From a candidate division WOR-3 bacterium (GTDB lineage: Bacteria; Hydrothermota; UBA3073), in the NCBI GenBank assembly GCA_023129165.1, contig JAGMCL010000039.1, positions 1,839 through 65,838 on the forward strand: a DNA stretch of 64,000 nucleotides, in the 5' to 3' direction. Each line of letters opens with the position of its first letter. Position 1 is the stretch's first letter. The position numbers and the translations under genes were made by a program. Of this stretch, positions 30,261-58,585 are shown in pieces. Under the pieces are notes generated by a model. That model saw only the letters and a list, made by a program, of their open reading frames with translations. It searched no databases and had not been told where the DNA came from.

Positions 30261-30353
30261 AATTCCTCCTATAAATTAAAAAAGTATTGTCAAAAAACTT
30301 TTGCCTATTTTCTTCTAATTCGTTAGCTAACGAATAACCTACAATTTTACAAG

Positions 30354-30652: not shown

Positions 30653-30815
30653 CATTAAAAGAAATTGTACAACATTTGACACTACAGGTTAATGGTAATG
30701 AAAGACGTACTTTGTTGAATTTATGAACTTAATGGAAATTTATTATACCACAATTTTTTACCATTGTCAAGCCTTTTTAAAAAAGTCACATAAAGAAATA
30801 TATCTTATTTTTTCC

Positions 30816-33358: not shown

Positions 33359-33391
33359 CTGTAAATTTTCTCCTGTTTAAATAATCCTTTT

Positions 33392-33978: not shown

Positions 33979-34277
33979 TGTGTTCTCGTGTTCACCTAAC
34001 CTCCGTAGAATTTCTTACTACTTGCGAATAAGTATATATAATTTATACGGTATGTCAATGTTTTTTTGGCTTCATAAATCAACAAGATAATTGAGAGAGA
34101 ACAGGCAGAAAATGCCGGTTTCGGGCGAGGGAACTTTCGTAACCGGTAATTCCTGCTCTCAATCAAACAATTGCGATGCGGATTGACCAAAGGGCAAAAG
34201 GTATCAAGTCCACTACGAATAACGCCGAAGGCGGTTGAAGTCGGACGACTACAATTACCGAAGGTGAGAAATGGCAC

Positions 34278-34727: not shown

Positions 34728-34749
34728 TACATATAAAGCTATTCTAGTA

Positions 34750-37772: not shown

Positions 37773-37778
37773 GATTAA

Positions 37779-39212: not shown

Positions 39213-39214
39213 AG

Positions 39215-40051
39215 TTATTTATTAGTTATTTGAAAGATCGCCAACTTCAAAACCTGCCAGCATAATTTAGCCGTGTGCTCATCTGGATTAAATTGCTGAT
39301 TTGCTTGCTGATATGGGTGAATATAATTTCTAAAATCTCTCAATGAATGGCTGAATTTCTTTACATCTTCTTTTAAAAACCCAATTTCCTTAGCAACATC
39401 TATAAAATTACTTAGCGTCCATTTATGAAATTGTAAAACTTTTCCGTTTTTATCTTTTGGACTGGTTTTTGCCATATTGAATTTTTGCGGATTGCTTGTT
39501 GCAACACCAAGCAATATTCCTTCAAGCGTGCTTCCGCATAGAAAGATTGTTGCTAAAGCCGCTTTTGAATTTAAGCATTTTTTAATTTCTTCAAGTCTCT
39601 GCTCAAGTATACTCGTTATTATCCCATCTAATTTTAACGAACCAATTGAAACTTCATTAAATTCCTTTTTTAAAAATTCATCCTCTGTAATGTTTTTGTT
39701 TTGCGTTTGTTTACCAAGCAATCTATCACTAATCTTCTTAGCCTTGTCAATAAGATTTTGAGGGAAATCGTTTTGTTGAAGATTGTCAATTAAAATTTGG
39801 TTTTCAATGTACTCAACAAGTTTTTCTATAGATTTGCCAACTAAAGAATCGCCAGCCACTTGCCAAAAACCTCTCATGCAATTGGCTTTTGATCCGCTTG
39901 CATAGTTATATTTTTCATCGTAGATATTAATGCCGACATCATCATTAAAAAACTCCCCCATTGTCCTATCGGAGAAATTAAGGACATAACCTCCGCTCAT
40001 TTGAAAAAGCTTCTCTAACGCTTGCTTATCGTTTGTAGTTAGACTTGCCAT
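39215..40051 (-). CDS. HEPN-like (Abi/DUF4145-like) protein inserted between hsdM and hsdS.
   Basis: The C-terminal about 120 aa (ALATIFLCGSTLEGILLGVA...KFSHSLRDFRNYIHPYQQ...AKLCWQVLKLAIFQI) contains an R-x(4-6)-H HEPN-type motif in an all-helical context. The position between M and S genes matches the known tendency of HEPN/Abi genes to embed in type I RM operons. The N-terminal 150 aa is unassigned. Confidence 0.35.
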   Translation of the reverse strand: MASLTTNDKQALEKLFQMSGGYVLNFSDRTMGEFFNDDVGINIYDEKYNYASGSKANCMRGFWQVAGDSLVGKSIEKLVEYIENQILIDNLQQNDFPQNLIDKAKKISDRLLGKQTQNKNITEDEFLKKEFNEVSIGSLKLDGIITSILEQRLEEIKKCLNSKAALATIFLCGSTLEGILLGVATSNPQKFNMAKTSPKDKNGKVLQFHKWTLSNFIDVAKEIGFLKEDVKKFSHSLRDFRNYIHPYQQANQQFNPDEHTAKLCWQVLKLAIFQITNK

Positions 40052-40054
40052 GGA

Positions 40055-42145: not shown

Positions 42146-42463
42146 CTCGTTTCTTCAAAAACTTTTCGATGTGATAGGACTGTATCTTGTTAGGATTGTT
42201 GGAATGTCAATATGTACAACATATTATAACACGAAACTCAGAGAATGTCAAGCAATTGAGTTAAATTGTCGTATTACTAAACTATACAATAGTTTACAAC
42301 AATTTTATGGTTCATAAATGGACAATTCTCAAGAATTTTTTAGTGTTTTTCGGATTAGATTCAAGATACATAATAATCAATACTGAAGAATTTAGAAACA
42401 GGTCTTCCAGTATGAAGAGTGAAGAAACAATTGTAATCTGCGGCAATCTGCGTCCTATTATTC

Positions 42464-44011
42464 TCACACCTTCTCTGTTATAGCCTTTGCCTGGAGGAAA
42501 AAGAGAAGATAATCCCTTGAGCCTGTTTTCGTATCAGTTCCAGAAAGGTTAAACCCGCCAAAAGGATGAACTCCTACAAGAGCACCTGTGCATTTTCTGT
42601 TTATATATAGGTTTCCAACATGGAATTCTACCTTTGCCCTTTCTATCTTTTCTCTGTTATTTGTATATACTGCACCAGTTAGTCCATAATCCGTACCATT
42701 TGCTATATCCATAGCATCATCGAAATCCTTTGCGGGTATGACTGCAAGTACTGGACCAAATATCTCTTCCTGTGCTATTCTTGCGTTGGGGTTTAAATCG
42801 GTTATTATAGTGGGCTTTATATAGTATCCATCGCCTTCAGCAGGTTCACCACCAAGAACGAGTTTTCCTTCTTTTTTACCAACTTCTATATATTCAAGAA
42901 TGCTTCTATATGCCCGTTCATTTATTACTGCACCCATGAAGTTTTCAGGGTCTTCTGGTGGTCCTTGTTTTATCTTCTTTCCTTTTTGTACAAGTTTATC
43001 GATGAATTCGTTGTAAATTTCATCAAGAACTATAGCTCTTGAACAGGCTGAGCATTTCTGACCCTGGTATCCAAATGCTGCTACAATTACTCCATTCACT
43101 GCAGAATCAAGGTCTGTTTCAGAATCCACTATAATCGTATCTTTACCACCCATCTCAGCTATAACTCTCTTTATCCATTTCTGACCTTTGGATAGTTTGG
43201 CAGCAAGCTCCACTATTCTTAGGCCTACTGCCTTAGAACCTGTAAATGTTATAAATCGTGTCTTTGGAGAATTCACAAGAATATCACCAATCTTACCTCC
43301 GCTTCCTGGTAGGTAGTTTACAACACCATCAGGTACACCAGCTTCCTCAACGATTTCCATGAACTTCGCACCTGTAACAGGAGAATCACTTGATGGTTTT
43401 AAAACAACAGTGTTACCTGCTCCAAATGCAGCGGCTGTCATACCAGTAAGTATAGACATTGGAAAGTTCCAGGGTGGTATAGATACTCCAACTCCAAGTG
43501 GTATATACCACATCTCAGGCTTTTCACCAGGAAATGGAGTTATATCGCCTCCCTTACCGTATCTAATGACCTCCCTGGCATAATAGTCAAGAAAGTCTAT
43601 TGCTTCTGCAATATCTCCATCTGCCTCAGGCCAGGATTTTCCAACTTCATATACGAGCCAGGCATCAAGTTCGTATCTCATTCTTCTCATTATATCTGCC
43701 ATTTTAAAGAGGTATTCTGCTCTTTCCTCTGCTTTTGTATATCTCCATTTTTTAAAGGCCTCCGTTGCTACTTCGAGTGCTCTCTCTGCGTCTTCTACAG
43801 ATGAGTTCTCAACTATTCCTACAACATCGTCCTTGTGGGATGGATTTATAGATTTTATAGGTGTTACAATTTTACCTTTCTTTCCCCCGATTATGTTGGG
43901 ATACTCTTTGCCCAATTCACCCTTTACTTTTGTCAGGGCATTCTGCATCATTTTTTTATTCTCGTCGTTTTTGAAGTCTATAATAACTTCGTTTTTGAAA
44001 TCTCCCCTCAT
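42464..44011 (-). CDS. rocA: L-glutamate gamma-semialdehyde (1-pyrroline-5-carboxylate) dehydrogenase, aldehyde dehydrogenase family.
   Basis: 515 aa. The N-terminus (KNEVIIDFKNDENKKMMQNALTKVKGELGKEYPNIIGGKK) matches RocA/PruA. Catalytic Cys region (GQKCSACSRAIV) and Glu (AEMGGKD). Confidence 0.8.
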   Translation of the reverse strand: MRGDFKNEVIIDFKNDENKKMMQNALTKVKGELGKEYPNIIGGKKGKIVTPIKSINPSHKDDVVGIVENSSVEDAERALEVATEAFKKWRYTKAEERAEYLFKMADIMRRMRYELDAWLVYEVGKSWPEADGDIAEAIDFLDYYAREVIRYGKGGDITPFPGEKPEMWYIPLGVGVSIPPWNFPMSILTGMTAAAFGAGNTVVLKPSSDSPVTGAKFMEIVEEAGVPDGVVNYLPGSGGKIGDILVNSPKTRFITFTGSKAVGLRIVELAAKLSKGQKWIKRVIAEMGGKDTIIVDSETDLDSAVNGVIVAAFGYQGQKCSACSRAIVLDEIYNEFIDKLVQKGKKIKQGPPEDPENFMGAVINERAYRSILEYIEVGKKEGKLVLGGEPAEGDGYYIKPTIITDLNPNARIAQEEIFGPVLAVIPAKDFDDAMDIANGTDYGLTGAVYTNNREKIERAKVEFHVGNLYINRKCTGALVGVHPFGGFNLSGTDTKTGSRDYLLFFLQAKAITEKV

Positions 44012-44100: not shown

Positions 44101-44243
44101 CTGTCATTGCAAGTCTCTACGAACTTGGCAATCTTATCTACTCAATCTGTCATTGCGAGTGAATAAAATGAACGCGGCAATCTCATATGTGATATAATTC
44201 AGTAAAAAGCGATTGCTTCATCCTTACGGATTCGCAATGACAG
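44101..44243. repeat. Cluster of GTCATTGCGAG-family motifs in both orientations, between radC and rocA.
   Basis: ctgtcattgcaag (44101), ctgtcattgcgag (44147), gcgattgcttc (44209) and ggattcgcaatgacag (44228). Related copies lie at 10478-10528, 46840-46874 and 57954-57969. Confidence 0.75.
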
Positions 44244-44328
44244 AAAAGACCCGTATCACGTAACTTTGAGACACTCCCTAAAATCAAATATCAAAAATAA
44301 CCCAATGACGAGTGACCAATGATCGACT

Positions 44329-45012: not shown

Positions 45013-45047
45013 AATTGCAAATCAAAATTCAAAAACTTGGGCAACAC

Positions 45048-45773
45048 CTACACCTCAAAAACATTTATAACCTCTTCCCCAAGCATATCAATGATTTTTA
45101 CTGCAACTTGGGTTTTAGATTCTGGGATTTCAATTTCATATTTTCCTTTTACTAAGTCGTTTTTTCTTTCTGGAACATCGGAGTAAACGATATGGAAGGT
45201 TTTGCCATCGTAATTTTTATCAATTAAAACTGTATCAATCATAGATCTATAATCGGGGATTTTTACCTTGAAGAGTTTATTGTCAATGTTAAGACGTTCA
45301 ATTATTGTGGGAGAGATAAAGTTCTGAATCTCCACTAATGTCTTTGTCTTATCAATCCTTTCAACTTTTATTTTTGCTTCTGCGGGCTTGTGGATTAAGA
45401 AATTACCATATTTTTTATTTGTCTTTAACTCAATTACTTTAATCTTATTTACAGGATGTTTCTTGTTCCACTCATCAATCCAGGGGTCAACCGCTAATTC
45501 TTTGCCAAGACAGACAATAGTTATATCCCTATCTTCAGTTGGTCTTTTCTTTAATTCATCTTGAAGAAGTTGTAAGTCAAGAAGTGTTAGGGGATGATTA
45601 AAATCAATAATTTTTACGAGATTTTTCCCTAAATATCCATCAAAAAATCTATCGGTTCGTGTCCTTTGAATTCCAATATGCTGGACTGCAAGTTCAATTG
45701 CCTCGGTTTTTAAAAGTTGCAAATCATAGTCGTTAACCTTATAGATACCGAAAGAATAATACTTCTTACACAT
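45048..45773 (-). CDS. Hypothetical protein in the defence operon; unassigned.
   Basis: 241 aa. Overlaps the upstream DUF1016 gene by 8 nt. I recognise no motif. Confidence 0.3.
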   Translation of the reverse strand: MCKKYYSFGIYKVNDYDLQLLKTEAIELAVQHIGIQRTRTDRFFDGYLGKNLVKIIDFNHPLTLLDLQLLQDELKKRPTEDRDITIVCLGKELAVDPWIDEWNKKHPVNKIKVIELKTNKKYGNFLIHKPAEAKIKVERIDKTKTLVEIQNFISPTIIERLNIDNKLFKVKIPDYRSMIDTVLIDKNYDGKTFHIVYSDVPERKNDLVKGKYEIEIPESKTQVAVKIIDMLGEEVINVFEV

Positions 45774-46800
45774 CTTTTGCCTCCAGTTTTAATTGTGCAG
45801 TTTGTATGGCTTTATGTAATTTTTCAGCAAATAATTCTTTTGGTGGCAATTTTGTCAGGTATTCCGCTACTTTTATTCTATCCTTTGGTAAAAATAGAAG
45901 TTCTATCTGCTCTTTACCTTTTTCAGCACAGAGTATAAGTCCAACAGGTGGATTCTCTCCTTCAAGCATTTCATATTTCTCTAAATATCTGAGATAAAGT
46001 TCCATCTGACCTTTGTAGTCTGCTTTAAATTTCCCAAGTTTTAAGTCTATCACTATGAAGCATCTTAATTTTCTGTGGTAAAATACCAAATCCATATAGT
46101 AATCCTCGTTATCAACAGTAATTCTTTTCTGTCTTGCCACAAAATAGAAATCTTTTCCTAATTCAAGGATAAATTTCTCAAGGGCATTCAATATTGCTCT
46201 TTCTAAATCTCTTTCACTATAAGTATCGCTGAGTTCTAAAAAGTCCAATACATAAGGGTCTCTAAAAACTAATTCTGGTGTCATTTTGTCTTTTTCTTTT
46301 AGTTCTTTTAATTGCATTTTTATAGTCTTTTCTGGAAGTTTTGACAATGCGGTTCTTTCATAAAGCATACTATTCATTCTTTCCTGAAGTGTGCGTGTGC
46401 TCCAGTGTTCTTTCAAGCATAAGGTAGCGTAAAATTCTCGTTTTAATTTATCTTTTGTTGGCAAAAGAGTTCTAATATGTGTCCAACTCAGCCCTTCTAA
46501 TTCTCCACGCAGTGCGTGGAGAATTGGGTAGCTTTCATATAACTGAATCATATACCACAAATTTTGTGTTGAATATCCTTTACCGTATTTTTGTGTTAAT
46601 AGTGAACTAACCGAGTTCACTATCTTTTTCCCATACTCAGCCCTATATGACTTTATTATCTCTTCTTTGACTGTCTTACCTATGTTCCAGTAGAGCAACA
46701 CCATCTCCTGATTGATAGTAGTGGCAACTTTTCTTCTTGCCTGTTCTATCAAGCCAGAAATTTTGTCAAACAGACCTTTACCTTTCTCAATTTTATTCAT
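45766..46800 (-). CDS. DUF1016/YhcG-family PD-(D/E)xK nuclease-fold protein.
   Basis: Matches the YhcG pattern: N-terminal helical domain (LSWTHIRTLL) and C-terminal PDDEXK core (GKDFYFVARQKRITVDNEDYYMDLVFYHRKLRCFIVIDLKLGKFKADYKGQMELYLRYL). Confidence 0.7.
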   Translation of the reverse strand: MNKIEKGKGLFDKISGLIEQARRKVATTINQEMVLLYWNIGKTVKEEIIKSYRAEYGKKIVNSVSSLLTQKYGKGYSTQNLWYMIQLYESYPILHALRGELEGLSWTHIRTLLPTKDKLKREFYATLCLKEHWSTRTLQERMNSMLYERTALSKLPEKTIKMQLKELKEKDKMTPELVFRDPYVLDFLELSDTYSERDLERAILNALEKFILELGKDFYFVARQKRITVDNEDYYMDLVFYHRKLRCFIVIDLKLGKFKADYKGQMELYLRYLEKYEMLEGENPPVGLILCAEKGKEQIELLFLPKDRIKVAEYLTKLPPKELFAEKLHKAIQTAQLKLEAKDV

Positions 46801-47957
46801 TAACTAATTCCTTTTTTTTGATTTGTTGAAGTTCTTCCACTGTCATTGCGAGGCATAGCCAAAGCAATCGCATTTTTTATCTGCTCTTGTATTATTCCCT
46901 GCAATCTCTTGCTCGTTATCTGAATTGCTCCCTTGTTTATATCACACCCAATCCATCGCCTGCCAAGTGCTTGGGCAACCGCAAGAGTTGTGCCTGAACC
47001 GATGAAGCAGTCAAGGACTATTCCATTTTCATTGGAAGCGGCTTTTATAATACGCTTAAAAATCATATCATGCTTTTGTGTTTGAAAACCCGTTTTACTA
47101 TCACCCCTAATCGCTGGTACTTCGATAAAATTATCTGCTTTTTCTTCATAAACTAAAAAGTACCTTATTTTACCGTCTTTATCTCTGATCCTTTCTGCTT
47201 TGCCCATTTTTTCATTCCATTGATGCATACTTGCTTTTCTTGGCTTATCTAACTTTTCGTAAACTTCATTGTAGATATGTGATCCTTTATGTTTTGCGTA
47301 CCATAGAATATTCTCTGTATTTTGATGAAATTTCTTCGATTTCGCCTTTAGTCCCACAGCTGTATAATGAACAATCACTTCATTTAAAAAGTTATCTTCA
47401 CCGAATATTTCATCTATGAGCAGCTTTACATAGTGAGCCATACGCCAATCCAGGTGCACATAAATAGAGCCTGTATCTGCTAACAACTCCTTTAAAAGTA
47501 TCAATCTCTCATACATAAACTGCAAATAAGTATCATTATTCCAAATATCAAAATACATTGTCTGTTGTAAGATAGATGCTTCATCTTCTTCTATCCGCCC
47601 TAAATTTTTTAGTCCTCTGAGTTCAACTTTTCTTACATAATCCGCCCCGCTTTTAAATGGTGGGTCTATATAAATCAAATCAATCTTTCCTCTGAATCCT
47701 AATTCAAGAAGTGTTGCTAAAATATCCTTATTATCTCCGTGAAATAGTAAATTATGCCAATTATCTTTGAGATTCTCATATGAGATTGCTTCGCCTTTGG
47801 CTCGTAATGACAAATCGCCTGGCGGGTCAAAGACTTCTACAAGTTGGGCAGGAAATCCTTTAACATAATCGAGCGGCTTTTTACCTACCCAGTTAAGCAT
47901 TGGTCGTCCTTTAGCAGAAGAGATTTTGATTTTATTTTCTGCCATTATAGCCCCCAT
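46800..47957 (-). CDS. Beta-class N6-adenine/N4-cytosine DNA methyltransferase (Type III Mod-like; short).
   Basis: N-terminal LNWVGKK. Motif IV DPPF (IDLIYIDPPFKSGADY) precedes motif I near the C-terminus (LDCFIGSGTTLAVAQALGRRWIGCDIN), which is beta-class order. The last about 25 codons overlap a dispersed repeat copy. Confidence 0.75.
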   Translation of the reverse strand: MGAIMAENKIKISSAKGRPMLNWVGKKPLDYVKGFPAQLVEVFDPPGDLSLRAKGEAISYENLKDNWHNLLFHGDNKDILATLLELGFRGKIDLIYIDPPFKSGADYVRKVELRGLKNLGRIEEDEASILQQTMYFDIWNNDTYLQFMYERLILLKELLADTGSIYVHLDWRMAHYVKLLIDEIFGEDNFLNEVIVHYTAVGLKAKSKKFHQNTENILWYAKHKGSHIYNEVYEKLDKPRKASMHQWNEKMGKAERIRDKDGKIRYFLVYEEKADNFIEVPAIRGDSKTGFQTQKHDMIFKRIIKAASNENGIVLDCFIGSGTTLAVAQALGRRWIGCDINKGAIQITSKRLQGIIQEQIKNAIALAMPRNDSGRTSTNQKKGIS

Positions 47958-50538
47958 ATTTATATATTGCTTCTCTAACTTTATTCAAACCTTCAAAAGT
48001 TAGTTGCTCCCCCTTCGTCTCTACAATTTCATACTTCAATCTATCAGGGTTCAGTCCTTCAATTCTTCTCATTTCCTTTTCCTTTGCTTCATCTTTAAAT
48101 CGTTCAGCTTTTATCTCAATGATTAGCATTTTGCCATTTTTCCTTCTTATTAAAAAATCAGGTGAGTAATTATGATACCCGCCATCTTTACCTTTATATT
48201 CAAAGAGAAAATCGGTCTTTTTAGGGTCGTCAATTGCTCCTGTAAAATAAACATCCTCAACATCTGCTGGGTTTTCATTTAACATTGCTAACAGTTGCTG
48301 GAAGAAATCTACTTCAGGATTAGAATCAAACTTATAGGGATTATAGTGAAAACCAAAATCTCGTTTATTTAATTCTTTAAATTCCTCATACCTTTTAAGC
48401 AAATGTTCTTTATCTTTGTGATAAATTATTTCTGTCACATAGTTCTCATCTTTCTTATTGAAACCAGCAGTTTTCACAAGTGCCAATGCAGACTCAACTT
48501 CTTCCTCTATTATTTTATAATTTTTTAGTTGTCTCTCAATTTGTTTTTTAATTTCATGGGTATCATTGCTGGACATTTCTCCATCAGGATATAAATTCTT
48601 TAGTTTTTCATGTACTGGCATAAGCGGTAATCTATACAGAGCTGAAAGCTCAACAGCAAAAGAATAGGCATCAACAAAATCTTCTTCTGTTATTAGTTTT
48701 TCATCTTTCTGTGCTATCAAAACACCTTTTCTATCAGGAATTTCTTTTAGGTCATAGAAAATCTTTTTGACCTCATCTATAGAAATATCAGGTTTTTGTA
48801 ATTCTATTTGAGTGATATCAATTTCTTTATCAACTGGGATAACTTTTTGAATCTTTTTTCTGAGTAAAACGGGTGGTATCTCCACTTTTCTTAAAATTAG
48901 TCTATCCTTTCTTATATCTTGTGGAGTTCTATTTAAATCTTCAAGAGTTTCACCATAGGTCTCTTTAAGTTGTGTGTCTAAAATTCCGACATTATCTTTT
49001 GAAAGGTAGATTTTTGCCTTGTGTATATTGCCAGTAGTTTGTCTGAGGCAGCGGGAAGCAGCTTGAAGGCAAAAGTTATTACTTGCTGTCAGTTTTCGTG
49101 CTAAGGCAGTAGAAAAAAGAGATAAGCAATTCCATCCCTCAGTCCCTTTATTAACAAGAAGAAAAATGCGGTAAAGTAGGTGTGGGTCATTTATTCGGTT
49201 ATCAAATAAATCCTTAACCTCTTGTTTTGACTCATTATGCACTTCTAAAACTATAGAAGGATCAAAGCCGAGCTCTATTAAGGTTTTTTCAACAACTGGC
49301 TTGGCATTTGTTAAATCCTCTATTTTTGGAAAATATATTGCCAGTTTAGAAGGACTACCATCATAGATCTTTACATCTTTATAACTCTTAAAGAAATCTG
49401 TAATAACATCTTTTAGAAAATCTCTATCCGTTACTTCTGAATAAGATACAATATTGCCCCGGACTTCTTTCAATATTCCATCTTTTATCCCTTGCGATAG
49501 ACCATACCAACAAACAACATCTTTAAGGATCTGTCTTTTATAATATGGAGTCCCAGTGGTGTTTACCACAACTAAAACATTTGTCTCTTCTGATAAATAA
49601 TTAACTGTTTGTCTCACTCTCTTCAGTTCTTTACCGAGTGCCAGTCCATAGGTATGGTGTGCTTCATCAGAAAAGATAGCAAGATTTGGAAGAGAGGCAA
49701 TTGTTTGCAATCTCTGATTGGCTATCACCTCCTTTACCTCATCTTCTCGGGATGGGTCAACAAATAAATCTTTGATTAAAGATTTGGTTATTGATTGTTT
49801 TTGTATTCTAATCTTTTCTGTATTAGTTACCACGATATTATAACTTGAACCTTTGATTATTGGAATGTCTTTTTCGCCATCGCGAGTATAGGTAAATTTT
49901 GTAGTGGTTATAAACTGTTTATAAAGCCTTTCAGGCAATATTTTCTCATAAGGAACATCCGATAGCTCTTTTAATGCTCCTAAGATGGTCTTGCCTGGCG
50001 CAAATACCAGGGCATTTTTGACAAAGTAATCCTCTGGATATTCAAGAGCCATTGCAAATTCTGTAGCGATAATAGCGCCAATTAAAATGGTCTTACCTGC
50101 TCCCATCGCCAATGCTAATATGTAGCTGGAGTAAGACAGGATTAGTGTTTCTCTGAGAGCTTGTAACCTATATTTTTTTACAAAGGCGTCGTCGTCTCTT
50201 ATTTTTTTAAATATTGAATTTATTCCGCCACCAGAGATAGCAATTTTTTTCCAGTCTTCATCTGTTAGTTTAATACCCAGAGCATCTAAAAGGTCATTTG
50301 GAGGAAAGATTTTTTTGTATAAATCAAAAATATGTGGAGTTTTTTCAATGAGTCTTAAATACCAGTAAGTTTCAAGGGCATCAAATTGGGCTTTTCGTAA
50401 GAAACGAAGGTTTTGGGTTCCTGAATTATAGTTGAAATTGAGAATTTCACCAATAACAGAATACCCTGTATTATAACTGTTATTTCTCCATTCAGACACT
50501 CTTGTTCTTAGTGTATCATGTAAATACATAACAGGCAA
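47932..50538 (-). CDS. SF2 helicase with a C-terminal PD-(D/E)xK nuclease motif (Type III Res-like restriction subunit).
   Basis: Walker A (AMGAGKT), DEAH box (FSDEAHH), motif III (TGTP), motif VI (QAASRCLRQ). C-terminal YSPDFLIRRKNGKMLIIEIKA (D...E-I-K). Overlaps the methyltransferase start by 26 nt. Confidence 0.65.
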   Translation of the reverse strand: MPVMYLHDTLRTRVSEWRNNSYNTGYSVIGEILNFNYNSGTQNLRFLRKAQFDALETYWYLRLIEKTPHIFDLYKKIFPPNDLLDALGIKLTDEDWKKIAISGGGINSIFKKIRDDDAFVKKYRLQALRETLILSYSSYILALAMGAGKTILIGAIIATEFAMALEYPEDYFVKNALVFAPGKTILGALKELSDVPYEKILPERLYKQFITTTKFTYTRDGEKDIPIIKGSSYNIVVTNTEKIRIQKQSITKSLIKDLFVDPSREDEVKEVIANQRLQTIASLPNLAIFSDEAHHTYGLALGKELKRVRQTVNYLSEETNVLVVVNTTGTPYYKRQILKDVVCWYGLSQGIKDGILKEVRGNIVSYSEVTDRDFLKDVITDFFKSYKDVKIYDGSPSKLAIYFPKIEDLTNAKPVVEKTLIELGFDPSIVLEVHNESKQEVKDLFDNRINDPHLLYRIFLLVNKGTEGWNCLSLFSTALARKLTASNNFCLQAASRCLRQTTGNIHKAKIYLSKDNVGILDTQLKETYGETLEDLNRTPQDIRKDRLILRKVEIPPVLLRKKIQKVIPVDKEIDITQIELQKPDISIDEVKKIFYDLKEIPDRKGVLIAQKDEKLITEEDFVDAYSFAVELSALYRLPLMPVHEKLKNLYPDGEMSSNDTHEIKKQIERQLKNYKIIEEEVESALALVKTAGFNKKDENYVTEIIYHKDKEHLLKRYEEFKELNKRDFGFHYNPYKFDSNPEVDFFQQLLAMLNENPADVEDVYFTGAIDDPKKTDFLFEYKGKDGGYHNYSPDFLIRRKNGKMLIIEIKAERFKDEAKEKEMRRIEGLNPDRLKYEIVETKGEQLTFEGLNKVREAIYKYGGYNGRK

Positions 50539-50577
50539 CCTTTAAGAATTGAGTTGTAAAAAATTTGTTTAACACCC

Positions 50578-50633
50578 TGCCCCTGGAGGGATTCGAACTC
50601 TCGCTAACCCGGTTCCGACCCCACACCGCTTTA
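50578..50633 (-). other. tRNA-like 3'-half fragment (T-arm plus acceptor 3' strand) immediately 3' of tRNA-Arg.
   Basis: Minus strand ...GGGTTAGCGAGAGTTCGAATCCCTCCAGGGGCA carries a TTCGAAT T-loop and acceptor strand CAGGGGC. The T-stem has one mismatch. Confidence 0.3.
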
Positions 50634-50707
50634 TGCCCCGAGCAGGATTCGAACCTGCAACGCTCGGTTCCGAAGACCGACGCTCTTATCCATTGAGCTA
50701 CCGGGGC
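50634..50707 (-). tRNA. tRNA-Arg (anticodon TCG).
   Basis: Minus-strand sequence GCCCCGGTAGCTCAATGGATAAGAGCGTCGGTCTTCGGAACCGAGCGTTGCAGGTTCGAATCCTGCTCGGGGCA folds as a canonical cloverleaf. 7 bp acceptor stem (one G-U pair). D arm GCTC/GAGC. Anticodon stem TCGGT/ACCGA with loop CTTCGGA. T arm GCAGG-TTCGAAT-CCTGC. No encoded CCA. Confidence 0.8.
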
Positions 50708-50710
50708 CCC

Positions 50711-50747
50711 TGAAATGGTGTGGGGCTATCCACTGAGCTACAGGGGC
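50711..50747 (-). other. tRNA-like 5'-half fragment (acceptor 5' strand plus D-loop) immediately 5' of tRNA-Arg.
   Basis: Minus strand GCCCCTGTAGCTCAGTGGATAGCCCCACACC is 22/26 identical to the 5' part of the adjacent tRNA-Arg. Its acceptor GCCCCTG pairs perfectly with CAGGGGC of the downstream fragment. CCCCACACC / GGTGTGGGG form a 9 bp helix bracketing the intact tRNA-Arg. Confidence 0.3.
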
Positions 50748-50981
50748 AGTCGCCAAAATCAAATATCAAAAATCAAATATAAAAATTGTAATCACAGCTT
50801 ACACAGATTTTATCAGATTAAATAATTTTTCCCAGTCAGTGAAGTCCTTGCCTACCGGCTGGTAGCTGTGGCTCTTAAAGAAAAAAATCTGTTTTATTAT
50901 TTTTCTCTGTGCCCTCTGTGGTTTTATTAACGCATATTTTAGGATAATTTTAATTTTTGCATTTTGATTTTTAACTTGTAT

Positions 50982-52691
50982 CTAATATCTATAGTCTTCT
51001 ATCTTTGATAATTCTATCTGGGACTTGAGCCATTCATTAAATGCTTTATCTCTTCTTTCCTTCCATAACTCAACCTGAAACTCAGAAAATTTCTCCTGTA
51101 TTGTTTCTATCTCTGGTTCTTCTCTTTTTATACATTTAATTATAAAACAAGCGTCTTTTCCAATGACCGGGTTGCTTACGTTTCCTTCAGAGGTTACCCA
51201 AATTGCTCCATAAAATGTGGGATCTGTGGGCATATCAATTGGAGGATTTACTATAGAGAATTTGTCAACCTTTTTATATTTAATGTCTTTCAATGCCCTA
51301 TTAAATGTAGTTCCATATTCTACATTATTTTTAACTTCTATTAGTATAGTTTTTATAATCGCTTCCCTTTTCTCCTTTAAATAACTTTCCTTAACTTCCT
51401 CTTTTATCTCACTGAAGGGTGGTATTGTTTCAGGTATTGTGCCTCTATTTGTCCATACATAGATACCATCTTTTCTGCGGATAGGCTGGGATATTTTGCC
51501 TATCTTTGATGTGAGAAGAAGATTTGATATATCAAAACCATCTAATTCTTCAGATGTGGTTTCTTGAAGTTCGAGGTTCATAGCTTGTGCTCCATTTTCG
51601 AATCCATTCTCCTGTGCAAGTTCTATGAATGAGAAGGCATTATCCATAGCTAAACCAATTGTTTCATAAGAGGGAACAAGTCTCAGGTAGATTTGAGAAA
51701 TTTCAACGGAATCTCTTGTCCTACTATAGCATTTAAAGATATAAACTCCATCTTCTGTTTTTATAGGACCATATATGTCATCCCTGGACATTGAGAATAT
51801 TGCCTTTTCAAGCTTGTTGCTTAATTTACCCCTTTTAACAAAACCGATATAGCCAAATTCTCTTTTGGTTTTTGAATCGTCAGAAAAACGGAGAACAAGT
51901 GTGTCAAACGATTCACCTGAATGTAGTTGTGATATAATATCCGTTGCTTCTTCTATTAGCATGTTCTCATCTTCAAGTGATGCCGATAGATTGAATTTAA
52001 CATACTGTACGAGTATAGCTTTAGGTCTTTTAAAGAGCTCTTTTTCTCTCTCATAGTATTCCTGCAAATCGCTTTCATCAAAATCAACAATTATGTCCTC
52101 TGTGTGTATCTCTCCATACTCTACAGTAAACAGTGTATTTCTCTTAAAATATTCATTAATTGATGCTGTAGGTTGTACTGTTGAGAGCACCTGCATATAG
52201 AGTCGTTGTCTGGGTATTATATCTCTTATCCAGGATTCGTACTGTCTAAAGTATCTTATGTTTTGAGGATTTTGAAATAATTCTGCATACTTCAGGTAGT
52301 CAAACTCCCCACTGGTATAGAAGGTTGTGTCCTGCAGTATCTGTGGGGGAGGATTGGTCTTTATTGCATCTACAACCTCCTTATCACTGGGGATTAGTCC
52401 AACCTTTTGGTAATAGTCTCTTAAGATTGTTGCCTCAACAAGTGTATTGAATGCCGAATCTGATGCCTCATCCTCAGTATAGCCCATCTCCATGTAATTT
52501 CTTACGAGATTGCTATAGGCAATAGAAGAGATTTCTTTACCATTTACCTCTGCTATAACCCCTTTCTGTAGTTGTGTCATTGATCGAGAGCTGGCAAATC
52601 GCATACCCCATTGAAAGAAGATGAATGCAACAAATATTGCAACGGCAAACCACAAGAAGACGGTAATCTGTTTTCTCAATCTTTGTATCAT
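50982..52691 (-). CDS. Periplasmic chaperone / peptidyl-prolyl cis-trans isomerase, PpiD/SurA-like.
   Basis: N-terminal TM anchor, a SurA_N-like chaperone region, and a parvulin (PpiC-type) domain (IGFVKRGKLSNKLEKAIFSM...GPIKTEDGVYIFKCYSRT). Confidence 0.7.
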   Translation of the reverse strand: MIQRLRKQITVFLWFAVAIFVAFIFFQWGMRFASSRSMTQLQKGVIAEVNGKEISSIAYSNLVRNYMEMGYTEDEASDSAFNTLVEATILRDYYQKVGLIPSDKEVVDAIKTNPPPQILQDTTFYTSGEFDYLKYAELFQNPQNIRYFRQYESWIRDIIPRQRLYMQVLSTVQPTASINEYFKRNTLFTVEYGEIHTEDIIVDFDESDLQEYYEREKELFKRPKAILVQYVKFNLSASLEDENMLIEEATDIISQLHSGESFDTLVLRFSDDSKTKREFGYIGFVKRGKLSNKLEKAIFSMSRDDIYGPIKTEDGVYIFKCYSRTRDSVEISQIYLRLVPSYETIGLAMDNAFSFIELAQENGFENGAQAMNLELQETTSEELDGFDISNLLLTSKIGKISQPIRRKDGIYVWTNRGTIPETIPPFSEIKEEVKESYLKEKREAIIKTILIEVKNNVEYGTTFNRALKDIKYKKVDKFSIVNPPIDMPTDPTFYGAIWVTSEGNVSNPVIGKDACFIIKCIKREEPEIETIQEKFSEFQVELWKERRDKAFNEWLKSQIELSKIEDYRY

Positions 52692-52784
52692 ATATCCTCC
52701 TTATAGAAAAAAAGGTATTGTCAAAAAACTTTTGCCTATTTTCTTCTAATTCGTTAGCTAACGAATAACCTACAATTTTAAAAG

Positions 52785-52934
52785 CAGTTATCTAATTATT
52801 GCTTGCCTCCCCCTGATTCTTGTAGGGGTCGGATTCCCGTCTGCCATCGGGCGGGTATCCGACCCGTTTCTTTTGCGGGTTCGATAAATCGAACCCCTAC
52901 ATTTTTGCTTTCATATTCTTTCATGTTATTTTTC
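52785..52934 (-). repeat. Third copy of the structured repeat, upstream of ppiD. It is followed by the same about 75 bp leader seen at prfB.
   Basis: About 95% identical to the unit at 30496-30652. The shared flank tattgtcaaaaaacttttgcctattttcttctaattcgttagctaacgaataacctacaatttta(c/a)aag is also present (52716-52784 vs 30285-30353). Confidence 0.85.
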
Positions 52935-53175
52935 ACATTATCTTAATTACGGTGTTGTCAAAAACTAACCACAGACCTGCCTATGGTCATACAAGCGAAT
53001 TTATTAACAGTTCAAGCCAGTTTCGAAATCCTTCTTGTTTAACGTTGTCGATACTTGCCTGCCTGCGGTAGGCAGGTATCGGTGCTCGATATTTTGATGC
53101 TCGAAGCTCGTCTCCACTTGTCGCTTATTATATCATAAAATGCAAAAAAAGTCAAGGAAAAAGAGGGTGGGTGTA

Positions 53176-54068: not shown

Positions 54069-55289
54069 CTATTCTGGCGAAACTATCGAGACTGCGAATT
54101 GGTCTTTGTTGAAGAATTCTCTCGCAAGAGATATAACCTCATCCTCTTTCACATTTTCAATCGATTGCAGTATCTTATCAATTGAAATTTCCTTTTGGAG
54201 ATACATTTCCTCTTTCAGTATTCTTACCATTCTATTAACTGTTGATTCAAGCCCAAGTATAAATCCCCCTTTCAAGTGCTCTTTGGTGTTCTTTAGCTCG
54301 TTCTTATTCAACCCATCTTTTGTTAATCTTTTTAATTCCTTAAGAACTAAATCGATCGCTTTTTTCTGTTTTGAAGGATTTGTTGCGAGATATATTCCTA
54401 TGATTCCAGTATTACTAAAGAATTGAAGAAATGAGAATATATTATATGCAAGTCCTTCTGTCTCACGTAGACGTTGAAAAAGACGTGAACTCATTGAACC
54501 GCCCAAAAGGGTGTTTAGGATGAGTGCCGGATATCTGTAAGGTGAGTTATATTTGAAGGTCCTTCTTCCTATTGCAATATGAGCCTGTGATATGTCCTTT
54601 TTTTTCTTCTCCTTGAATTTTATAGTCTCTTCTGGAAATGGTTTTGAGGTTGTTTTCTGTACATTGTTGGGAAGTGATGTAAGTGTTGAGGCAACAAGTT
54701 CCTTTATCCTATCAAAAGAGAGTTTTCCAGAAGCAGCCACTATTGCATTGTTACCACAATATCTTTTATTTTTGAATTCGATTAGATTTTTTCTTTCTAT
54801 TTTTCTTACGGTATCCTCTTGCCCTAATATAGGAGATGAGATGGGATGACCGGAATAAAGACAGTTCGATAACTGCCGGAAGACTTCCTCTTCAGGGGAA
54901 TCTTTTGAGTTTCTTATTTCTTCAATAACCACACCCTTTTCTTTTTCTAAATCTTCCCTGTTGAATAAAGGATTGAGTATTATATCTGTAAGTATGTCCC
55001 AAACCTTCTCTAAATATTGGTCAAGAAATCTTGCATAGTAGTAGGTAAACTCCTTTGTTGTAAAGCCGTTAAGCTCAGCACCCAGAGAATCAGCCTCGAC
55101 TGCTATCCTGTAGGCATCTCTTTTCGGAGTACCCTTGAAAAGCATATGTTCTATAAGGTGTGATATACCAGACTGCCTTTTATCCTCGTGTACAGAGCCT
55201 GTTTGGAATGCAATTCCGAGTGACACAGACCTTACACCTTTTACCTCTTCATTAACCAATCTCAACCCGTTGTCAAGACAAGTCTTCAT
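54069..55289 (-). CDS. M16 family zinc peptidase (insulinase/pitrilysin-like).
   Basis: Inverted zinc motif HxxEH (SHLIEHMLFKGT) and downstream Glu (ELNGFTTKE). Peptidase_M16 N- and C-lobes. The ORF-track start at 55295 is a TTG; the ATG is at 55289. Confidence 0.75.
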   Translation of the reverse strand: MKTCLDNGLRLVNEEVKGVRSVSLGIAFQTGSVHEDKRQSGISHLIEHMLFKGTPKRDAYRIAVEADSLGAELNGFTTKEFTYYYARFLDQYLEKVWDILTDIILNPLFNREDLEKEKGVVIEEIRNSKDSPEEEVFRQLSNCLYSGHPISSPILGQEDTVRKIERKNLIEFKNKRYCGNNAIVAASGKLSFDRIKELVASTLTSLPNNVQKTTSKPFPEETIKFKEKKKKDISQAHIAIGRRTFKYNSPYRYPALILNTLLGGSMSSRLFQRLRETEGLAYNIFSFLQFFSNTGIIGIYLATNPSKQKKAIDLVLKELKRLTKDGLNKNELKNTKEHLKGGFILGLESTVNRMVRILKEEMYLQKEISIDKILQSIENVKEDEVISLAREFFNKDQFAVSIVSPE

Positions 55290-55407
55290 AAACAACTCCT
55301 GAGAAAAGTTATAGTATTGTTAAAAATCTAACCACATACCTGCCCTACACCCCTCTTCGTCCGTCAAACGACGGACTCCTACCTTTTATCGTCCCGCCAG
55401 ATGTGGG

Positions 55408-55883
55408 GCTCCTACATTCCCTTTCCGGTAGGAGGGGTTTCCTAACCCCGATTAAATTATCGCGACGGGGACGTTGCTCCTACCCTGTATCGCGACTAGG
55501 AAGTCGCTCCTACATTCCCTTTCCGGTAGGAGGGGTTTCCTAACCCCGATTAAATTATCGCGACGGGGACGTTGCTCCTACCCTGTATCGCGACTAGGAA
55601 GTCGCTCCTACATTCTCCTTTCCGGTAGGAGGGGTTTCCTAACCCCGATTAAATTATCGCGACGGGGACGTTGCTCCTACCCTGTATCGCGACTAGGAAG
55701 TCGCTCCTACATTCTCTTTCCGGTAGGAGGGGTTTCCTAACCCCGATTAAATTATCGCGACGGGGACGTTGCTCCTACCCTGTATCGCGACTAGGAAGTC
55801 GCTCCTACATTCTCCTTTCCGGTAGGAGGGGTTTCCTAACCCCGATTAAATTATCGCGACGGGGACGTTGCTCCTACCCTGTA
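55408..55883. repeat. Tandem array of a 98-99 bp unit, about 4.8 near-identical copies, each with three hairpins.
   Basis: Unit gctcctacattccctttccggtaggaggggtttcctaaccccgattaaattatcgcgacggggacgttgctcctaccctgtatcgcgactaggaagtc repeats at 55408, 55506, 55604, 55703 and 55801. It is truncated in the fifth copy. Copies differ by 1-nt indels at cattccc / cattctcc / cattctc. Confidence 0.9.
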
Positions 55884-56035
55884 ATTAGTCTGATGTCTTA
55901 CTAAATACGCTCTATGGAGTGCATTTACCATGTCGATGCATATTATGAAATTGTATTTTAACGTGCGTAGATTATACCATATTTAAGGGTTTTTGTCAAG
56001 CAAAAAAGCAGAGAGTTACTTACGTTTGTTTTTTC

Positions 56036-56064
56036 TTGACATTTAGGCTTTTTTCATTTATAAT
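56036..56064 (+). promoter_or_regulatory. Consensus sigma70 promoter for the permease-EIIA gene.
   Basis: TTGACA (56036-56041), 17 nt spacer, TATAAT (56059-56064). Confidence 0.6.
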
Positions 56065-56089: not shown

Positions 56090-57952
56090 GTGAGTACAGA
56101 TAAAGTTATGGTTAAGTTGTTAAAATTCAGGCGTCTAAAAAAGCAGTTATCTTTGTTTGATGTCTTTGCCATCAGTACGGGGGCAATGGTAAGCTCAGGC
56201 TTATTTCTTTTGCCCGGGTTGGCTGCGGCAAAGGCTGGACCTGCTGTTATTATTGCCTATTTATTATCAGGTATATTGATTCTACCAGCACTTCTAAGTA
56301 AGGCTGAGCTTTCTACTGCAATGCCTCGTGCCGGCGGGACATATTATTTTACGAGTCGAAGTCTGGGTCCACTTTTTGGGGTGATTGATGGAATTGGTGC
56401 ATGGTTGAGTCTTGTTCTAAAGAGTAGTTTTGCTATCGTGGGATTAGCAGCCTATCTTGTATATTTTATAGGATTGCCTGTTAAGCCAGTTGCTATTTCT
56501 GGTTGTATTTTGTTTACAATACTCAATGTATTCGGAGCACGAGAGGCTGCACGTTTACAGGTCTTGATGGTGGTTGTACTTATAGGTTGCCTGATTTACT
56601 TTATAGGTCGCGGTCTATTTCATATAGATACAGCTAATTTTACACCATTTGTACCATTCGGTGGTTTATCCGTTCTTGGAACAGCAGGTTTTGTATTTGT
56701 CTCTTATATCGGTTTGACCAAGGTTTCCAGTGTTTCAGAAGAGATTAAGAATCCTGAGCGTAATATTCCTCTTGGAATGTTACTTTCACTATTTACTGCA
56801 ATAATAATTTACACCTTAGGCACACTGGTGATTGTTGGTGTAGTACCTGCAGATAGGTTATTCCATAACCTGACACCTGTAGAGACAGCAGCTTCTCTTT
56901 TTCTTGGGAGTACAGGTATTATTATAGTTAGCATTGCCGCCATCCTTGCCTTTGCTACCACGGGTAATGCCGGTATCCTGTCTGCCTCCCGTTATATCTT
57001 AGCAATGGGGCGTGATGGTGTAGTACCATCTGCTTTATCTCGTGTGGGTCGATTTCGTTCTCCATTAAACTCTATTATTTTAACATCGATTGTAATCCTC
57101 CTTGCAATCGTATTTCTCGATGTAGAAAACATCGCTAAATTAGCTGGTAGTTTTCAGTTACTGGTATTCGCTTTTATTAATGTTTCTGTAATTTTAATGC
57201 GTGAAAGCAAGATAAAGTCGTATGATCCAGGGTTTCGCTCACCTGGTTATCCATGGGTTCAAATTATGGGTATAATAGTTTCTCTTGTTTTGATTCCCCT
57301 GTTAGGAAAAATCTCATTGTTATTCACAGCTGGTGTAGTTTTACTTGGTCTTGGTTGGTATTTTTGTTATGCACGTTCCAGGGTAACAGGTTCAGGTGCT
57401 ATAGTGCACGTAGCAGAACGTGTTGCAAATTTACTTCGTCGCGATGCTTCTGAACTCGGTCTGGAGCGTGAGCTGCGGGAAATTTTAAAAGAGAAGGGTC
57501 TGCGGTCAGATGATCCCTATAAAGAGGTTGTTATTCGAGCCTCTATCCTTGATGTAGGACCCGATACGAGATGGGATGAAATTATAATTAGTGCATCCGA
57601 TTTGTTGGCAGAGCGTTTCGGGGGTTTTGATATTGATATTCGTCGTGGTCTTTTGGATTGCAGCGGACCCGGCAAGACACCGTCTGAAGCAGGTATAGCA
57701 CTTCCTCATGTTCGCTTATCAGGTATAGACCACCATGAGTTAGTTATAGTACGTTCCCGTACTGGCTTTTATCTGCCAGGAGCTGATTCTCTGATATATG
57801 CTGCTTTTATACTGATTGGTTCACTTGACAACCCACGTAGACATTTACGCTTTCTTGCTGAACTTGCGAGACGAACTGATATCCCTGGATTTTTAGAAAG
57901 GTGGCTTGTAGCTGATGGTTTGGATGAATTAAGGGAAGTGTTGCTGGATTGA
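56090..57952 (+). CDS. APC-family amino-acid permease fused to a C-terminal PTS EIIA(Ntr/fructose)-type regulatory domain.
   Basis: About 12 TM helices in the first 440 aa with the APC N-terminal signature (FDVFAISTGAMVSSGLFLLPG). The C-terminal about 170 aa carries the PTS_EIIA_2 pattern with its phosphorylatable His (EAGIALPHVRLSGIDHHELVIVRS). A consensus promoter lies at 56036-56064. The coding sequence is noticeably GC-richer than its surroundings. Confidence 0.7.
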   Translation: MSTDKVMVKLLKFRRLKKQLSLFDVFAISTGAMVSSGLFLLPGLAAAKAGPAVIIAYLLSGILILPALLSKAELSTAMPRAGGTYYFTSRSLGPLFGVIDGIGAWLSLVLKSSFAIVGLAAYLVYFIGLPVKPVAISGCILFTILNVFGAREAARLQVLMVVVLIGCLIYFIGRGLFHIDTANFTPFVPFGGLSVLGTAGFVFVSYIGLTKVSSVSEEIKNPERNIPLGMLLSLFTAIIIYTLGTLVIVGVVPADRLFHNLTPVETAASLFLGSTGIIIVSIAAILAFATTGNAGILSASRYILAMGRDGVVPSALSRVGRFRSPLNSIILTSIVILLAIVFLDVENIAKLAGSFQLLVFAFINVSVILMRESKIKSYDPGFRSPGYPWVQIMGIIVSLVLIPLLGKISLLFTAGVVLLGLGWYFCYARSRVTGSGAIVHVAERVANLLRRDASELGLERELREILKEKGLRSDDPYKEVVIRASILDVGPDTRWDEIIISASDLLAERFGGFDIDIRRGLLDCSGPGKTPSEAGIALPHVRLSGIDHHELVIVRSRTGFYLPGADSLIYAAFILIGSLDNPRRHLRFLAELARRTDIPGFLERWLVADGLDELREVLLD

Positions 57953-58021
57953 CGGACTCGCAATGACAGGAGTACTTTTTTCTGTAATTATTTGAGTTTG
58001 AAACATTCTCTATTATTTATT

Positions 58022-58585
58022 ATGCGGCTTTTTATTGCAATAGAGATACCAGAGGATATAAAAGATGAGATTGTAGGGATTGAAGAAGAGCTTCGCACTT
58101 TCTGGAGTGCGAAATGGGTTGAAAGAGATAACATTCATCTCACACTAAAATTTTTGGGTGAGATTGAAGATGGTAGAATAGAAGAGGTAAAAAGGATTGT
58201 GTCCGAGACATCCCAAATGAATCACGGGTTTTCACTCAATCTGGAAAACATTGGGGGATTCCCGAATCTTAAAAAGCCGAGGATAATATGGATTGGTGTA
58301 AGAGAGGTAGATAAATGTGTCGTGAATATCATGGAGAACCTTGAGGAGAAATTTATCAAATTTGGTATAGAACCAGAAAGAAAGAAGAAGACCCCACATA
58401 TAACCATAGGCAGGATAAAGGGATATTCAAGGAAATATAGTGAAAAAGAGAGTAAGGTTATAGATGGATTGATATATAAGAGTAGAATATTCAGGGTTGA
58501 ATCAATTTCTGTTATAAAGAGTGTACTAACACCAAAAGGAGCGATTCACACTGTTATTAAGCAGTACCCACTGAAGACATTATGA
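58022..58585 (+). CDS. thpR: RNA 2',3'-cyclic phosphodiesterase (2H phosphoesterase, LigT/ThpR). The ORF-track start at 57992 is probably upstream of the true start MRLFIAIEIP.
   Basis: Two H-x-T/S-x motifs (HLTLKFLG and HITIGR) with the typical about 80 aa spacing. Confidence 0.75.
   Translation: MRLFIAIEIPEDIKDEIVGIEEELRTFWSAKWVERDNIHLTLKFLGEIEDGRIEEVKRIVSETSQMNHGFSLNLENIGGFPNLKKPRIIWIGVREVDKCVVNIMENLEEKFIKFGIEPERKKKTPHITIGRIKGYSRKYSEKESKVIDGLIYKSRIFRVESISVIKSVLTPKGAIHTVIKQYPLKTL

Follow-up and report, generated by a model that had tools for sequence, protein, structure and literature searches.

A tandem array beside an M16 peptidase gene of a candidate division WOR-3 bacterium is very likely a BIME-like cluster of GTAG-tagged REP elements

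GTAG-tagged palindromes are the hallmark of repetitive extragenic palindromic (REP) elements, which are non-autonomous and are recognised as single-stranded DNA hairpins by REP-associated tyrosine transposases (RAYTs), HUH/Y1 endonucleases related to the transposases of the IS200/IS605 insertion sequences (IS). The subject here is a tandem array of hairpins at positions 55408-55883 of a 64,000-nucleotide stretch of DNA (the window; contig JAGMCL010000039.1, positions 1,839 to 65,838) from a candidate division WOR-3 bacterium. In all likelihood it is a tandem cluster of GTAG-tagged REPs resembling the bacterial interspersed mosaic elements (BIMEs), a known kind of selfish DNA in the form of a recent and strain-specific insertion, and no new RNA or regulatory system. 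In the described GTAG-1 and GTAG-2 families an unpaired dinucleotide separates the GTAG from the stem and a conserved 3-bp motif stands on the opposite side of the hairpin (Di Nocera et al, 2013; PMC3733652), and a position downstream of genes is the more typical one for REPs (PMC3733652). The basic module of a BIME has been described as a pair of directly oriented REPs that enclose an inverted REP, with head-to-tail joining, and the REPs that flank RAYT genes include TGTAGGAGCGGATTCATCCGCGAT and GTAGGAGCGCACCtGGGCGCGAC (Nunvar et al, 2010; PMC2817692). A rolling-circle process, with strand transfer by RAYT, has been proposed for their amplification (Nunvar; PMC2817692). The Escherichia coli enzyme TnpA_REP requires both the GTAG and the hairpin, and makes its cuts at CT dinucleotides that flank the REP (Messing et al; PMC3479197).

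Tandem Repeats Finder (TRF) reports the array with a period of 98 nt, 4.8 copies, 99 % matches and a score of 931, in agreement with the original prediction, made from the letters of the window, of 4.8 near-perfect copies of 98-99 bp. Cut at GCTCCTACATTC it divides into units of 98, 98, 99, 98 and 83 nt, the last being partial. The sole difference among these units, ATTC[CC/CC/TCC/TC/TCC]TTTCC, reflects 1-nt deletions relative to the 99-nt form and sits in the loop of the hairpin CTCCTAC...GTAGGAG, bearing out the earlier observation of 1-nt indels at one position. The unit is not a primary repeat, being itself composed of three copies of one 25-nt module. Each module has ATC, a 6-bp GC-rich stem closed by a 4-nt rGGr loop, and TCCTAC, and on the opposite strand reads GTAG-GA-stem-loop-stem-GAT. 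Module A lies on the minus strand with the stem-loop GGGGTT-agga-AACCCC, so written on the plus strand as GTAGGA-GGGGTT-tcct-AACCCC-GAT, and is present in five copies (55428-55452, 55526-55550, 55625-55649, 55723-55747 and 55822-55846). Modules B and C are on the plus strand. Module B, atc-GCGACG-ggga-CGTTGC-TCCTAC, contains one G.T pair and is also found five times (55459-55483, 55557-55581, 55656-55680, 55754-55778 and 55853-55877); module C, atc-GCGACT-agga-AGTCGC-TCCTAC, is found four times (55489-55513, 55587-55611, 55686-55710 and 55784-55808). All three hairpins originally listed for the unit are present, one of them, CTCCTAC...GTAGGAG, being formed by the pairing of two module tails, but a fourth, the GCGACG-ggga-CGTTGC hairpin of module B with its G.T pair, had been missed.

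The modules are joined by the spacers TAAATT (A to B, 6 nt) and CCTGT (B to C, 5 nt) and by 12-13 nt between C and the next A, within which lies the only variable position of the unit. Their order is (A- B+ C+) x4, then A- B+. Two solo REPs on the plus strand abut the array. The first, ttc-GTCCGTC-aaac-GACGGAC-TCCTAC at 55356-55382, is the hairpin already seen in front of the array and thought to be related to the dispersed repeats, and both its reality and the relationship hold. It is also present in L029, one of the loci retrieved for comparison; L029 was considered as an orthologous locus and rejected, being a different intergenic region with REP types in common. The second, atc-GTCCCGCC-aga-TGTGGGGC-TCCTAC at 55388-55415, stands at the module-C position of a 'unit 0'. 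The array begins with the 8-nt tail of this REP, GCTCCTAC, and with the flank included the arrangement reads [solo][C'](A B C)x4 A B. Modules A and B together make an inverted doublet of 56 nt with the GTAG ends outward (GTAGGAG...CTCCTAC), to which C adds a third REP in direct orientation. With four full units, one partial unit and fixed spacers between modules, the array has the regular head-to-tail arrangement of REPs that characterises BIMEs; strict alternation of REP orientation is not seen, the pattern per unit being -,+,+. The GC content of the kilobase containing the array is 0.47, compared with approximately 0.36 for the window.

When the region is folded as a single strand the module hairpins dominate, with the GTAGGAG/CTCCTAC helix enclosing A and B, and the folding energies are well below those of shuffled sequences (z-score -3.5 when 215 nt are folded as DNA, -6.6 when 561 nt are folded as RNA). 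A scan of the window at the Rfam gathering thresholds gave a tRNA at 50634-50707 as its sole match. The array had been judged to be neither a clustered regularly interspaced short palindromic repeat (CRISPR) locus nor a coding repeat. Consistent with the former, the spacers are identical between units, Rfam gives no CRISPR match and no cas domains are found in the tested neighbours; consistent with the latter, the open reading frames (ORFs) of 46-88 aa across the array have no Pfam match.

The same module recurs elsewhere in the window. Scanning for the class-1 form (ATC or TTC, a 6-8-bp stem, a 3-4-nt loop, the stem and TCCTAC) gives 19 modules: 14 within the array, two directly adjoining it and three at other sites. 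All 19 end in TCCTAC, equivalent to GTAGGA on the opposite strand; the triplet before the stem is ATC (GAT) in 16 of the 19 and TTC in the other 3, and GA separates the GTAG from the stem. A looser motif, a hairpin followed by CCTAC, occurs 24 times in the window as against 0.74 in shuffles, and CTCCTAC is seen 21 times where 5.1 are expected. Stem complementarity is kept by compensatory changes (GCGACT/AGTCGC, GGGACT/AGTCCC, GGGGTT/AACCCC, GTCCGTC/GACGGAC and GCAACG/CGTTGC). Four features of the GTAG-1 and GTAG-2 architecture are present: the GTAG end, the unpaired GA, the 3-bp GAT and the compensatory stems. Class-1 REPs are found at five separate places in the window, four of them intergenic and the fifth within an ORF, and copies of a second class, described below, are also present. 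Two of the dispersed solo copies are intergenic and on the minus strand: atc-GGGACT-atga-AGTCCC-TCCTAC at 11004-11028, with a compensated stem, which is missing from the orthologous site in the related contig L137, and atc-GCGACT-ggga-AGTCGC-TCCTAC at 16575-16599. The third, a REP-like copy at 32890-32917 on the plus strand, is within a MiaB/RimO-like radical-SAM ORF (31949-33358, minus strand). It falls in the linker that joins the UPF0004 domain to the Radical_SAM domain, encodes ...SMPVGAPPLAGRKPPPP... and is kept in the 98 % identical gene of L141, a relative discussed below.

The module is also widespread in other genomes, of many phyla. The pattern TATCGCGACN6GTYGCTCCTAC, with 19 specified bases, has more than 110 matching stretches in the species-representative genome collection, and those listed include five WOR-3 and Stahlbacteria genomes as well as Limnohabitans, Comamonadaceae, Methylotenera, Sulfuricella, Poribacteria, Geomesophilobacter and Halopseudomonas. 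Across loci the consensus is wATC-G..stem..rGGr..stem..C-TCCYAC, in which the stems vary and stay complementary. The bases before the stem in the other loci are TATCG, CATCG, AATCG or GATCG and the tail is TCCYAC (110 loci); the loops over these 110 loci are AGGG, GGGG, GGGA and AGGA, and those of the window are AGGA and GGGA. The 26-mer of module C is found unchanged in other WOR-3 metagenome-assembled genomes (MAGs) and in 20 JGI contigs, the latter being low-GC contigs recovered with WOR-3-type module C as a second query. TRF run on all loci gave 41 tandem arrays outside the window whose unit bears at least one REP head. Their units are of two to three modules, with periods mostly of 86-146 nt and 2-13 copies (13.1 copies in L012 and 11.9 in L085). 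The array of the window is ordinary among them except for its 99 % identity. Because the units are so nearly identical, their comparison indicates a tandem expansion that was presumably recent.

RAYTs were assigned with the NCBIfam model NF047646 ('REP-associated tyrosine transposase', cut-off 80 bits) to ORFs found by motif and tblastn scans of the fetched DNA. Three ORFs with the motifs MPDH[IL]H and Y[IV]xANPV, from L044, L073 and L085 (Limnohabitans, Comamonadaceae, Methylotenera), score 142-151 bits on this model, also match Pfam Y1_Tnp and are immediately next to exact module copies or enclosed by them. The RAYT of Limnohabitans sp. WS1 is inside clusters of GTAGGAG-CGAC...GTCG-CGATA and ATCG-CCCCG...CGGGG-CTCCYAC. 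A RAYT of 107 bits on the low-GC JGI contig L135 has class-1 REPs on both sides, and when used as a query it identified a further RAYT, P0123, on L139, a 1.3-kb unbinned contig of ENA sample ERZ23498683. This sample is also the source of L001, a contig 100 % identical to the window. The RAYT of L139 is bracketed by class-1 doublets that include GCAACG-agga-CGTTGC-TCCTAC, and the stem of module B is one transition away from this GCAACG...CGTTGC REP, which is present in L029 too. L139 moreover shares 18-nt stretches with module B and with the class-2 stem-loop at window position 28984. A RAYT flanked by its cognate REPs, as is typical of REP-RAYT systems, is therefore found in L044, L073, L085 and L135 and on L139. 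In an alignment of eight RAYTs the HUH histidines and the catalytic tyrosine are invariant, and the associated enzymes score below the IS200 cut-off (25-37 bits against 55).

In the second class of REP the stem directly abuts CCTAC (GTAGG plus stem), and copies are dispersed in intergenic DNA (window 1359-1376, 3985-4010, 18620-18641, 28984-29001, 30390-30411 and 52878-52900; L137:8698-8830 and 9320-9410). L137 is syntenic with window positions 4-16513 at 70-78 % nucleotide identity and encodes a RAYT of 111 bits (110.7) flanked by class-2 REPs, the whole RAYT and REP cassette being inserted exactly where the window genes 11105-12073 and 12070-12981 overlap. Since class-2 REPs flank a RAYT of their own in this syntenic contig, the lineage seems to carry two REP-RAYT systems. 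A REP or REP doublet is also seen in frame inside two RAYT ORFs, giving a 30-aa insertion in P0123 (L139:667-720) and one of 8 aa in P0121 (L138:553-577), with the HUH and tyrosine motifs of both intact. A near-identical 26-nt REP, with the same head, tail and CGAC...GTCG stem, is shared by WOR-3, Poribacteria, Beta- and Gammaproteobacteria and Desulfobacterota, and the RAYTs compared (WOR-3-type against those of Methylotenera, Limnohabitans and Comamonadaceae) have 20-32 % identity. Horizontal transfer or convergence may lie behind this, or a conserved host factor besides RAYT could read the module.

Comparison with close relatives shows the array to be a strain-level insertion. L141 (MAG CSMAG_2245, a 75-kb contig) runs collinear with the window, with which it shares 94-98 % nucleotide identity, and in both L141 and L142 the permease and M16 peptidase genes are divergent neighbours with an annotated gap of 159 bp that lacks the array. 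Since the gene pair and the promoters are shared with L141 and the insert is not, the difference is one of insertion in the strain of the window. The insert, of 609-611 bp, extends from 55301 to 55911 (right end 55909/11), is bounded by a 2-nt CT ambiguity and lies between the M16 Shine-Dalgarno sequence (SD) and the remainder of the leader with the minus-strand promoter. Its left part, of 58 nt, is not REP; the two solo REPs and the array follow, and the part to their right is of 28 nt. At the orthologous holB|M23 and PorV-upstream sites the class-1 copies also differ between the window and L137, so presence and absence at orthologous sites, as expected of mobile REPs, is seen both here and at the insert. 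L141 has its own repeat-filled insertions elsewhere; no tandem array was seen in the 21 kb of it that were examined.

The gene facing the array encodes an M16 (insulinase-family) peptidase (54069-55289, minus strand), whose protein is identical to MCK4328721.1 of a candidate division WOR-3 bacterium. On the other side is an amino-acid permease fused to a phosphotransferase system (PTS) EIIA-2 domain (56108-57952, plus strand). Two perfect TTGACA-17-TATAAT promoters lie between them, one on the plus strand at 56036-56064 for the permease-EIIA gene and one on the minus strand at 55971-55999, TG-extended and directed toward the M16 gene through the array. Both are conserved in L141 and L142, the latter promoter base for base, and in L141 it is about 70 nt from the M16 ATG. 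The array had been described as upstream of the permease promoter. That promoter is where it was said to be, but the array itself stands between the conserved minus-strand promoter (55999->55971) and the M16 start codon; this promoter had been overlooked, as had the GTAG-tagged REP signature and the link to RAYT. Thus the array is probably in a 5' leader of about 680 nt rather than upstream of a promoter, and the M16 transcript would now probably begin with a leader of this length carrying 16 stable hairpins, which could alter its stability or translation. The scan for promoters and terminators found no plus-strand promoter feeding the array and no terminator on either strand. As window and L141 differ by the insert, they form a natural pair of alleles for the effect of a BIME on a downstream gene from a position in the 5' leader.

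At the gene-proximal end of the insert, within its last 45 nt, is the motif TGTGGTTAGATTTTTAACAATA (also given as TTAACAATA) at 55310-55331 on the minus strand. Four genes have the form (TGTGGTTAGA)TTTTTrACAATA 20-25 nt upstream of their SD, in each case on the minus strand (55310-55331, ~28044-28065, ~30283-30296 and ~52714-52727). The motif could be an alternative control element. TGTGGTTAGATTTTTrACAATA was also considered as a sigma-70 promoter and rejected, the spacing to any -10-like hexamer being 13-15 nt and the promoter scan finding nothing there.

A series of events can be proposed in which RAYT, acting on single-stranded hairpins, would have seeded REPs at the site and a mosaic of approximately 611 bp containing REPs would have landed between the conserved M16 promoter and the ribosome-binding site. 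Tandem amplification of the three-REP unit would have followed or coincided with this, whether through strand transfer by RAYT or through ordinary slippage or unequal recombination of the 98-nt direct repeats, and the M16 mRNA would carry the resulting hairpins. It would seem most likely that the array has no dedicated function, and of the three guesses first offered for it, a phase-variable regulatory spacer, a small RNA (sRNA) array or a satellite, the last comes closest.

Several observations weigh against reading the array as a BIME-like cluster of REPs put in place in this way. The 6-bp stems are at the short end for REPs, the -,+,+ orientation does not alternate strictly as in the classical E. 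coli BIMEs, and a location between divergent genes, inside a leader, is less typical than one downstream of genes. No RAYT is encoded in the 64-kb window, as judged by Pfam on 30 ORFs, regular expressions for the HUH and tyrosine motifs and tblastn with three RAYTs, and L139 cannot be placed with certainty in the genome or chromosome of the window. The CT/CT junction of the insert, considered as evidence of RAYT cleavage, is compatible with it but at 2 nt is too short to support it. Finally, the 58 nt at the left of the insert do not belong to any REP and contain the motif found before other genes; from this the event may have been recombination or replacement and not a simple transposition.

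A more far-reaching alternative, which we regard as improbable, accepts a recent RAYT-driven tandem amplification and adds that the 16 hairpins now in the 5' leader of the M16 operon act as a copy-number-dependent expression switch, a domesticated REP. If true, it would show REPs naturally domesticated into a regulator, and this in a phylum from which no REP-RAYT systems have been described. Slightly less probable again is that the array is a copy-number-variable, that is phase-variable, element tuning the M16 operon or the permease and kept for that role. Its position between a conserved promoter and the M16 SD, the near identity of tandem units prone to slippage, and its presence or absence among close relatives would all suit such an element. 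However, the strains compared differ only in presence or absence and no copy-number variants of the array were seen among them, the contigs of the same strain merely breaking at it. The same modules occur at unrelated loci and flank RAYT genes, so that no regulatory role is needed to explain the sequence; classical phase-variation tracts are much smaller than a 98-nt unit, and the -35/-10 spacing of both promoters is unaltered. Phase-variable control could arise as a by-product, though nothing calls for it.

There is only a very small chance that the array, or its copy number, was made by the assembler through collapse or expansion of dispersed REPs. Three short-read assemblies of the same strain (L001, L002 and L003, 100 % identical) all end at or within the repeat, and L004, from a 96 % identical strain, begins 80 nt beyond it; the exact A-B junction used as a probe of the JGI metagenomes gave 0 matches and so no independent assembly of the array, and a 98-nt period with two identical consecutive units is not reliably counted by short reads. 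On the other hand the first 55 nt of unit 1 are contained in L001, which stops there, at 100 % identity, and because this contig reads independently into the repeat a pure artefact is unlikely. The loop variants (CC, TCC, TC) moreover give the units an order for which an artefact would have no need, and comparable arrays are present in isolate genomes such as that of Limnohabitans sp. WS1. The repeat is therefore real; since the three same-strain assemblies break at it, the figure of 4.8 copies, which rests on one assembly, is provisional. The array in turn explains why short-read assemblies of this WOR-3 organism break at the locus.

Least probable of all is that the array, for which an sRNA array was among the original guesses, encodes one or more structured RNAs, such as an sRNA that titrates a protein by hairpin loops of the GGA type in the manner of the CsrB/RsmZ sponges of CsrA: the loops are purine-rich with a GG core in the CTCCTAC orientation, the RNA fold is far below shuffles as given above and module B has a G.T pair that is paired on the plus strand only, but the array lacks an Rfam match, a plus-strand feeding promoter and a terminator, one module in three per unit is oppositely oriented, modules are found beside transposase genes and, relative to the genes around them, in both orientations, and the array is absent from the 94-98 % identical L141. 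Nor does the G.T pair of module B inform on a plus-strand RNA structure, for which it was considered and rejected, because the stem mismatches over the 110 loci are strand-symmetric (31 of G.T type and 29 of A.C type).

Further repeats and differences were observed in the window. About 400 nt upstream of prfB and of a surA-like gene (30257-30653 and 52688-52942) have 91-92 % mutual identity, contain a 76-nt segment with a class-2 REP in three copies and lie downstream of consensus promoters; from this it may be that long repeat-laden leaders are common in the genome of the window. A further dispersed family, which has no relation to the GTAG modules, has the form GTCATTGCGAG-(variable hairpin)-GAAGCAATC and frequently makes inverted pairs (window 3774-3889, 10480-10520, 44225-44244, 47780-47811 and 57951-57970; L141:7380-7850), and one copy abuts the stop codon of the permease gene. 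A restriction-modification-like block (ResIII helicase, N6/N4 methyltransferase and DUF1016) at ~45013-50947, beside the tRNA at 50634-50707, is absent from L141, as is a 9-kb block at ~33317-42466, and both are probably strain-specific islands. Comparison of window 57953-58466 with L004:1991-2210 shows that the 96 % identical L004 is without most of a LigT-like 2',5'-RNA-ligase gene, approximately 514 bp being reduced to approximately 220 bp. The ORF at 4095-7358 (minus strand) encodes a 1087-aa protein with 11 copies of a 126-nt (42-aa) coding repeat (5812-7213; ~68 % mutual identity), and the syntenic position of L137 lacks this gene altogether. The gene for release factor 2 (29195-30260, minus strand) is in two frames, with the PCRF domain at positions 67-193 of the listed ORF, which fits the programmed +1 frameshift that is usual for prfB.

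Set beside the described systems, the array is closest to the GTAG-1 and GTAG-2 REPs of Pseudomonas, Xanthomonas, Thauera and Thioalkalivibrio. It has the same GTAG end, GA, GAT, GC-rich stem (6-8 bp in those families and the class-1 form) and short loop, and the same occurrence as solo copies, inverted dimers and tandem clusters; the head and tail of the module are almost identical to those of Pent1 of P. entomophila, GTAGGAG-CGGATtcATCCG-CGAT. It differs in that the host is a WOR-3 bacterium of ~37 % GC and not a proteobacterium, in having a 4-nt rGGr loop in place of TY/CMA, and in its WOR-3-type RAYTs, which share only 20-32 % identity with those of proteobacteria and end in a C-terminal extension distinct from theirs. 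Identifying the array as a cluster of REPs accounts for a conspicuous repeat without a new RNA or defence system and extends the GTAG-type REP/RAYT pairing to candidate division WOR-3; none of the papers listed by a search of the literature links WOR-3 with RAYT or REPIN. New are the phylum in which it is found, its place in a leader and the subgroup formed by the WOR-3-type RAYTs, the kind of element being well known.

With the BIME-2 and atypical BIMEs of E. coli and with the BIMEs of Stenotrophomonas the array shares a multi-REP unit, fixed spacers, head-to-tail joining and variability between strains. The basic module of Nunvar et al corresponds to C+ A- B+ of the array and its orientation fits the 'atypical BIME' but not the classical BIME-2. 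The array differs in having three REPs with three different stems in the order -,+,+ and in lying in a 5' leader between divergent genes instead of downstream of genes. As in the REPIN-RAYT systems (Bertels and Rainey, 2011; PMC3116915) there are inverted doublets, flanked RAYTs in relatives and gain or loss at orthologous sites. The A-B doublet is, however, a heterodimer, with a 7-bp outer helix and two local hairpins instead of a single long hairpin. The subterminal hairpins of IS200/IS605 and the miniature inverted-repeat transposable elements (MITEs) derived from that family offer the same combination of a Y1 HUH enzyme, an imperfect hairpin and a guide tetranucleotide on single-stranded DNA; here, in contrast, no transposase stands between the hairpins, the elements are of 25 nt and are not IS ends, and the enzymes associated with them score as RAYTs.

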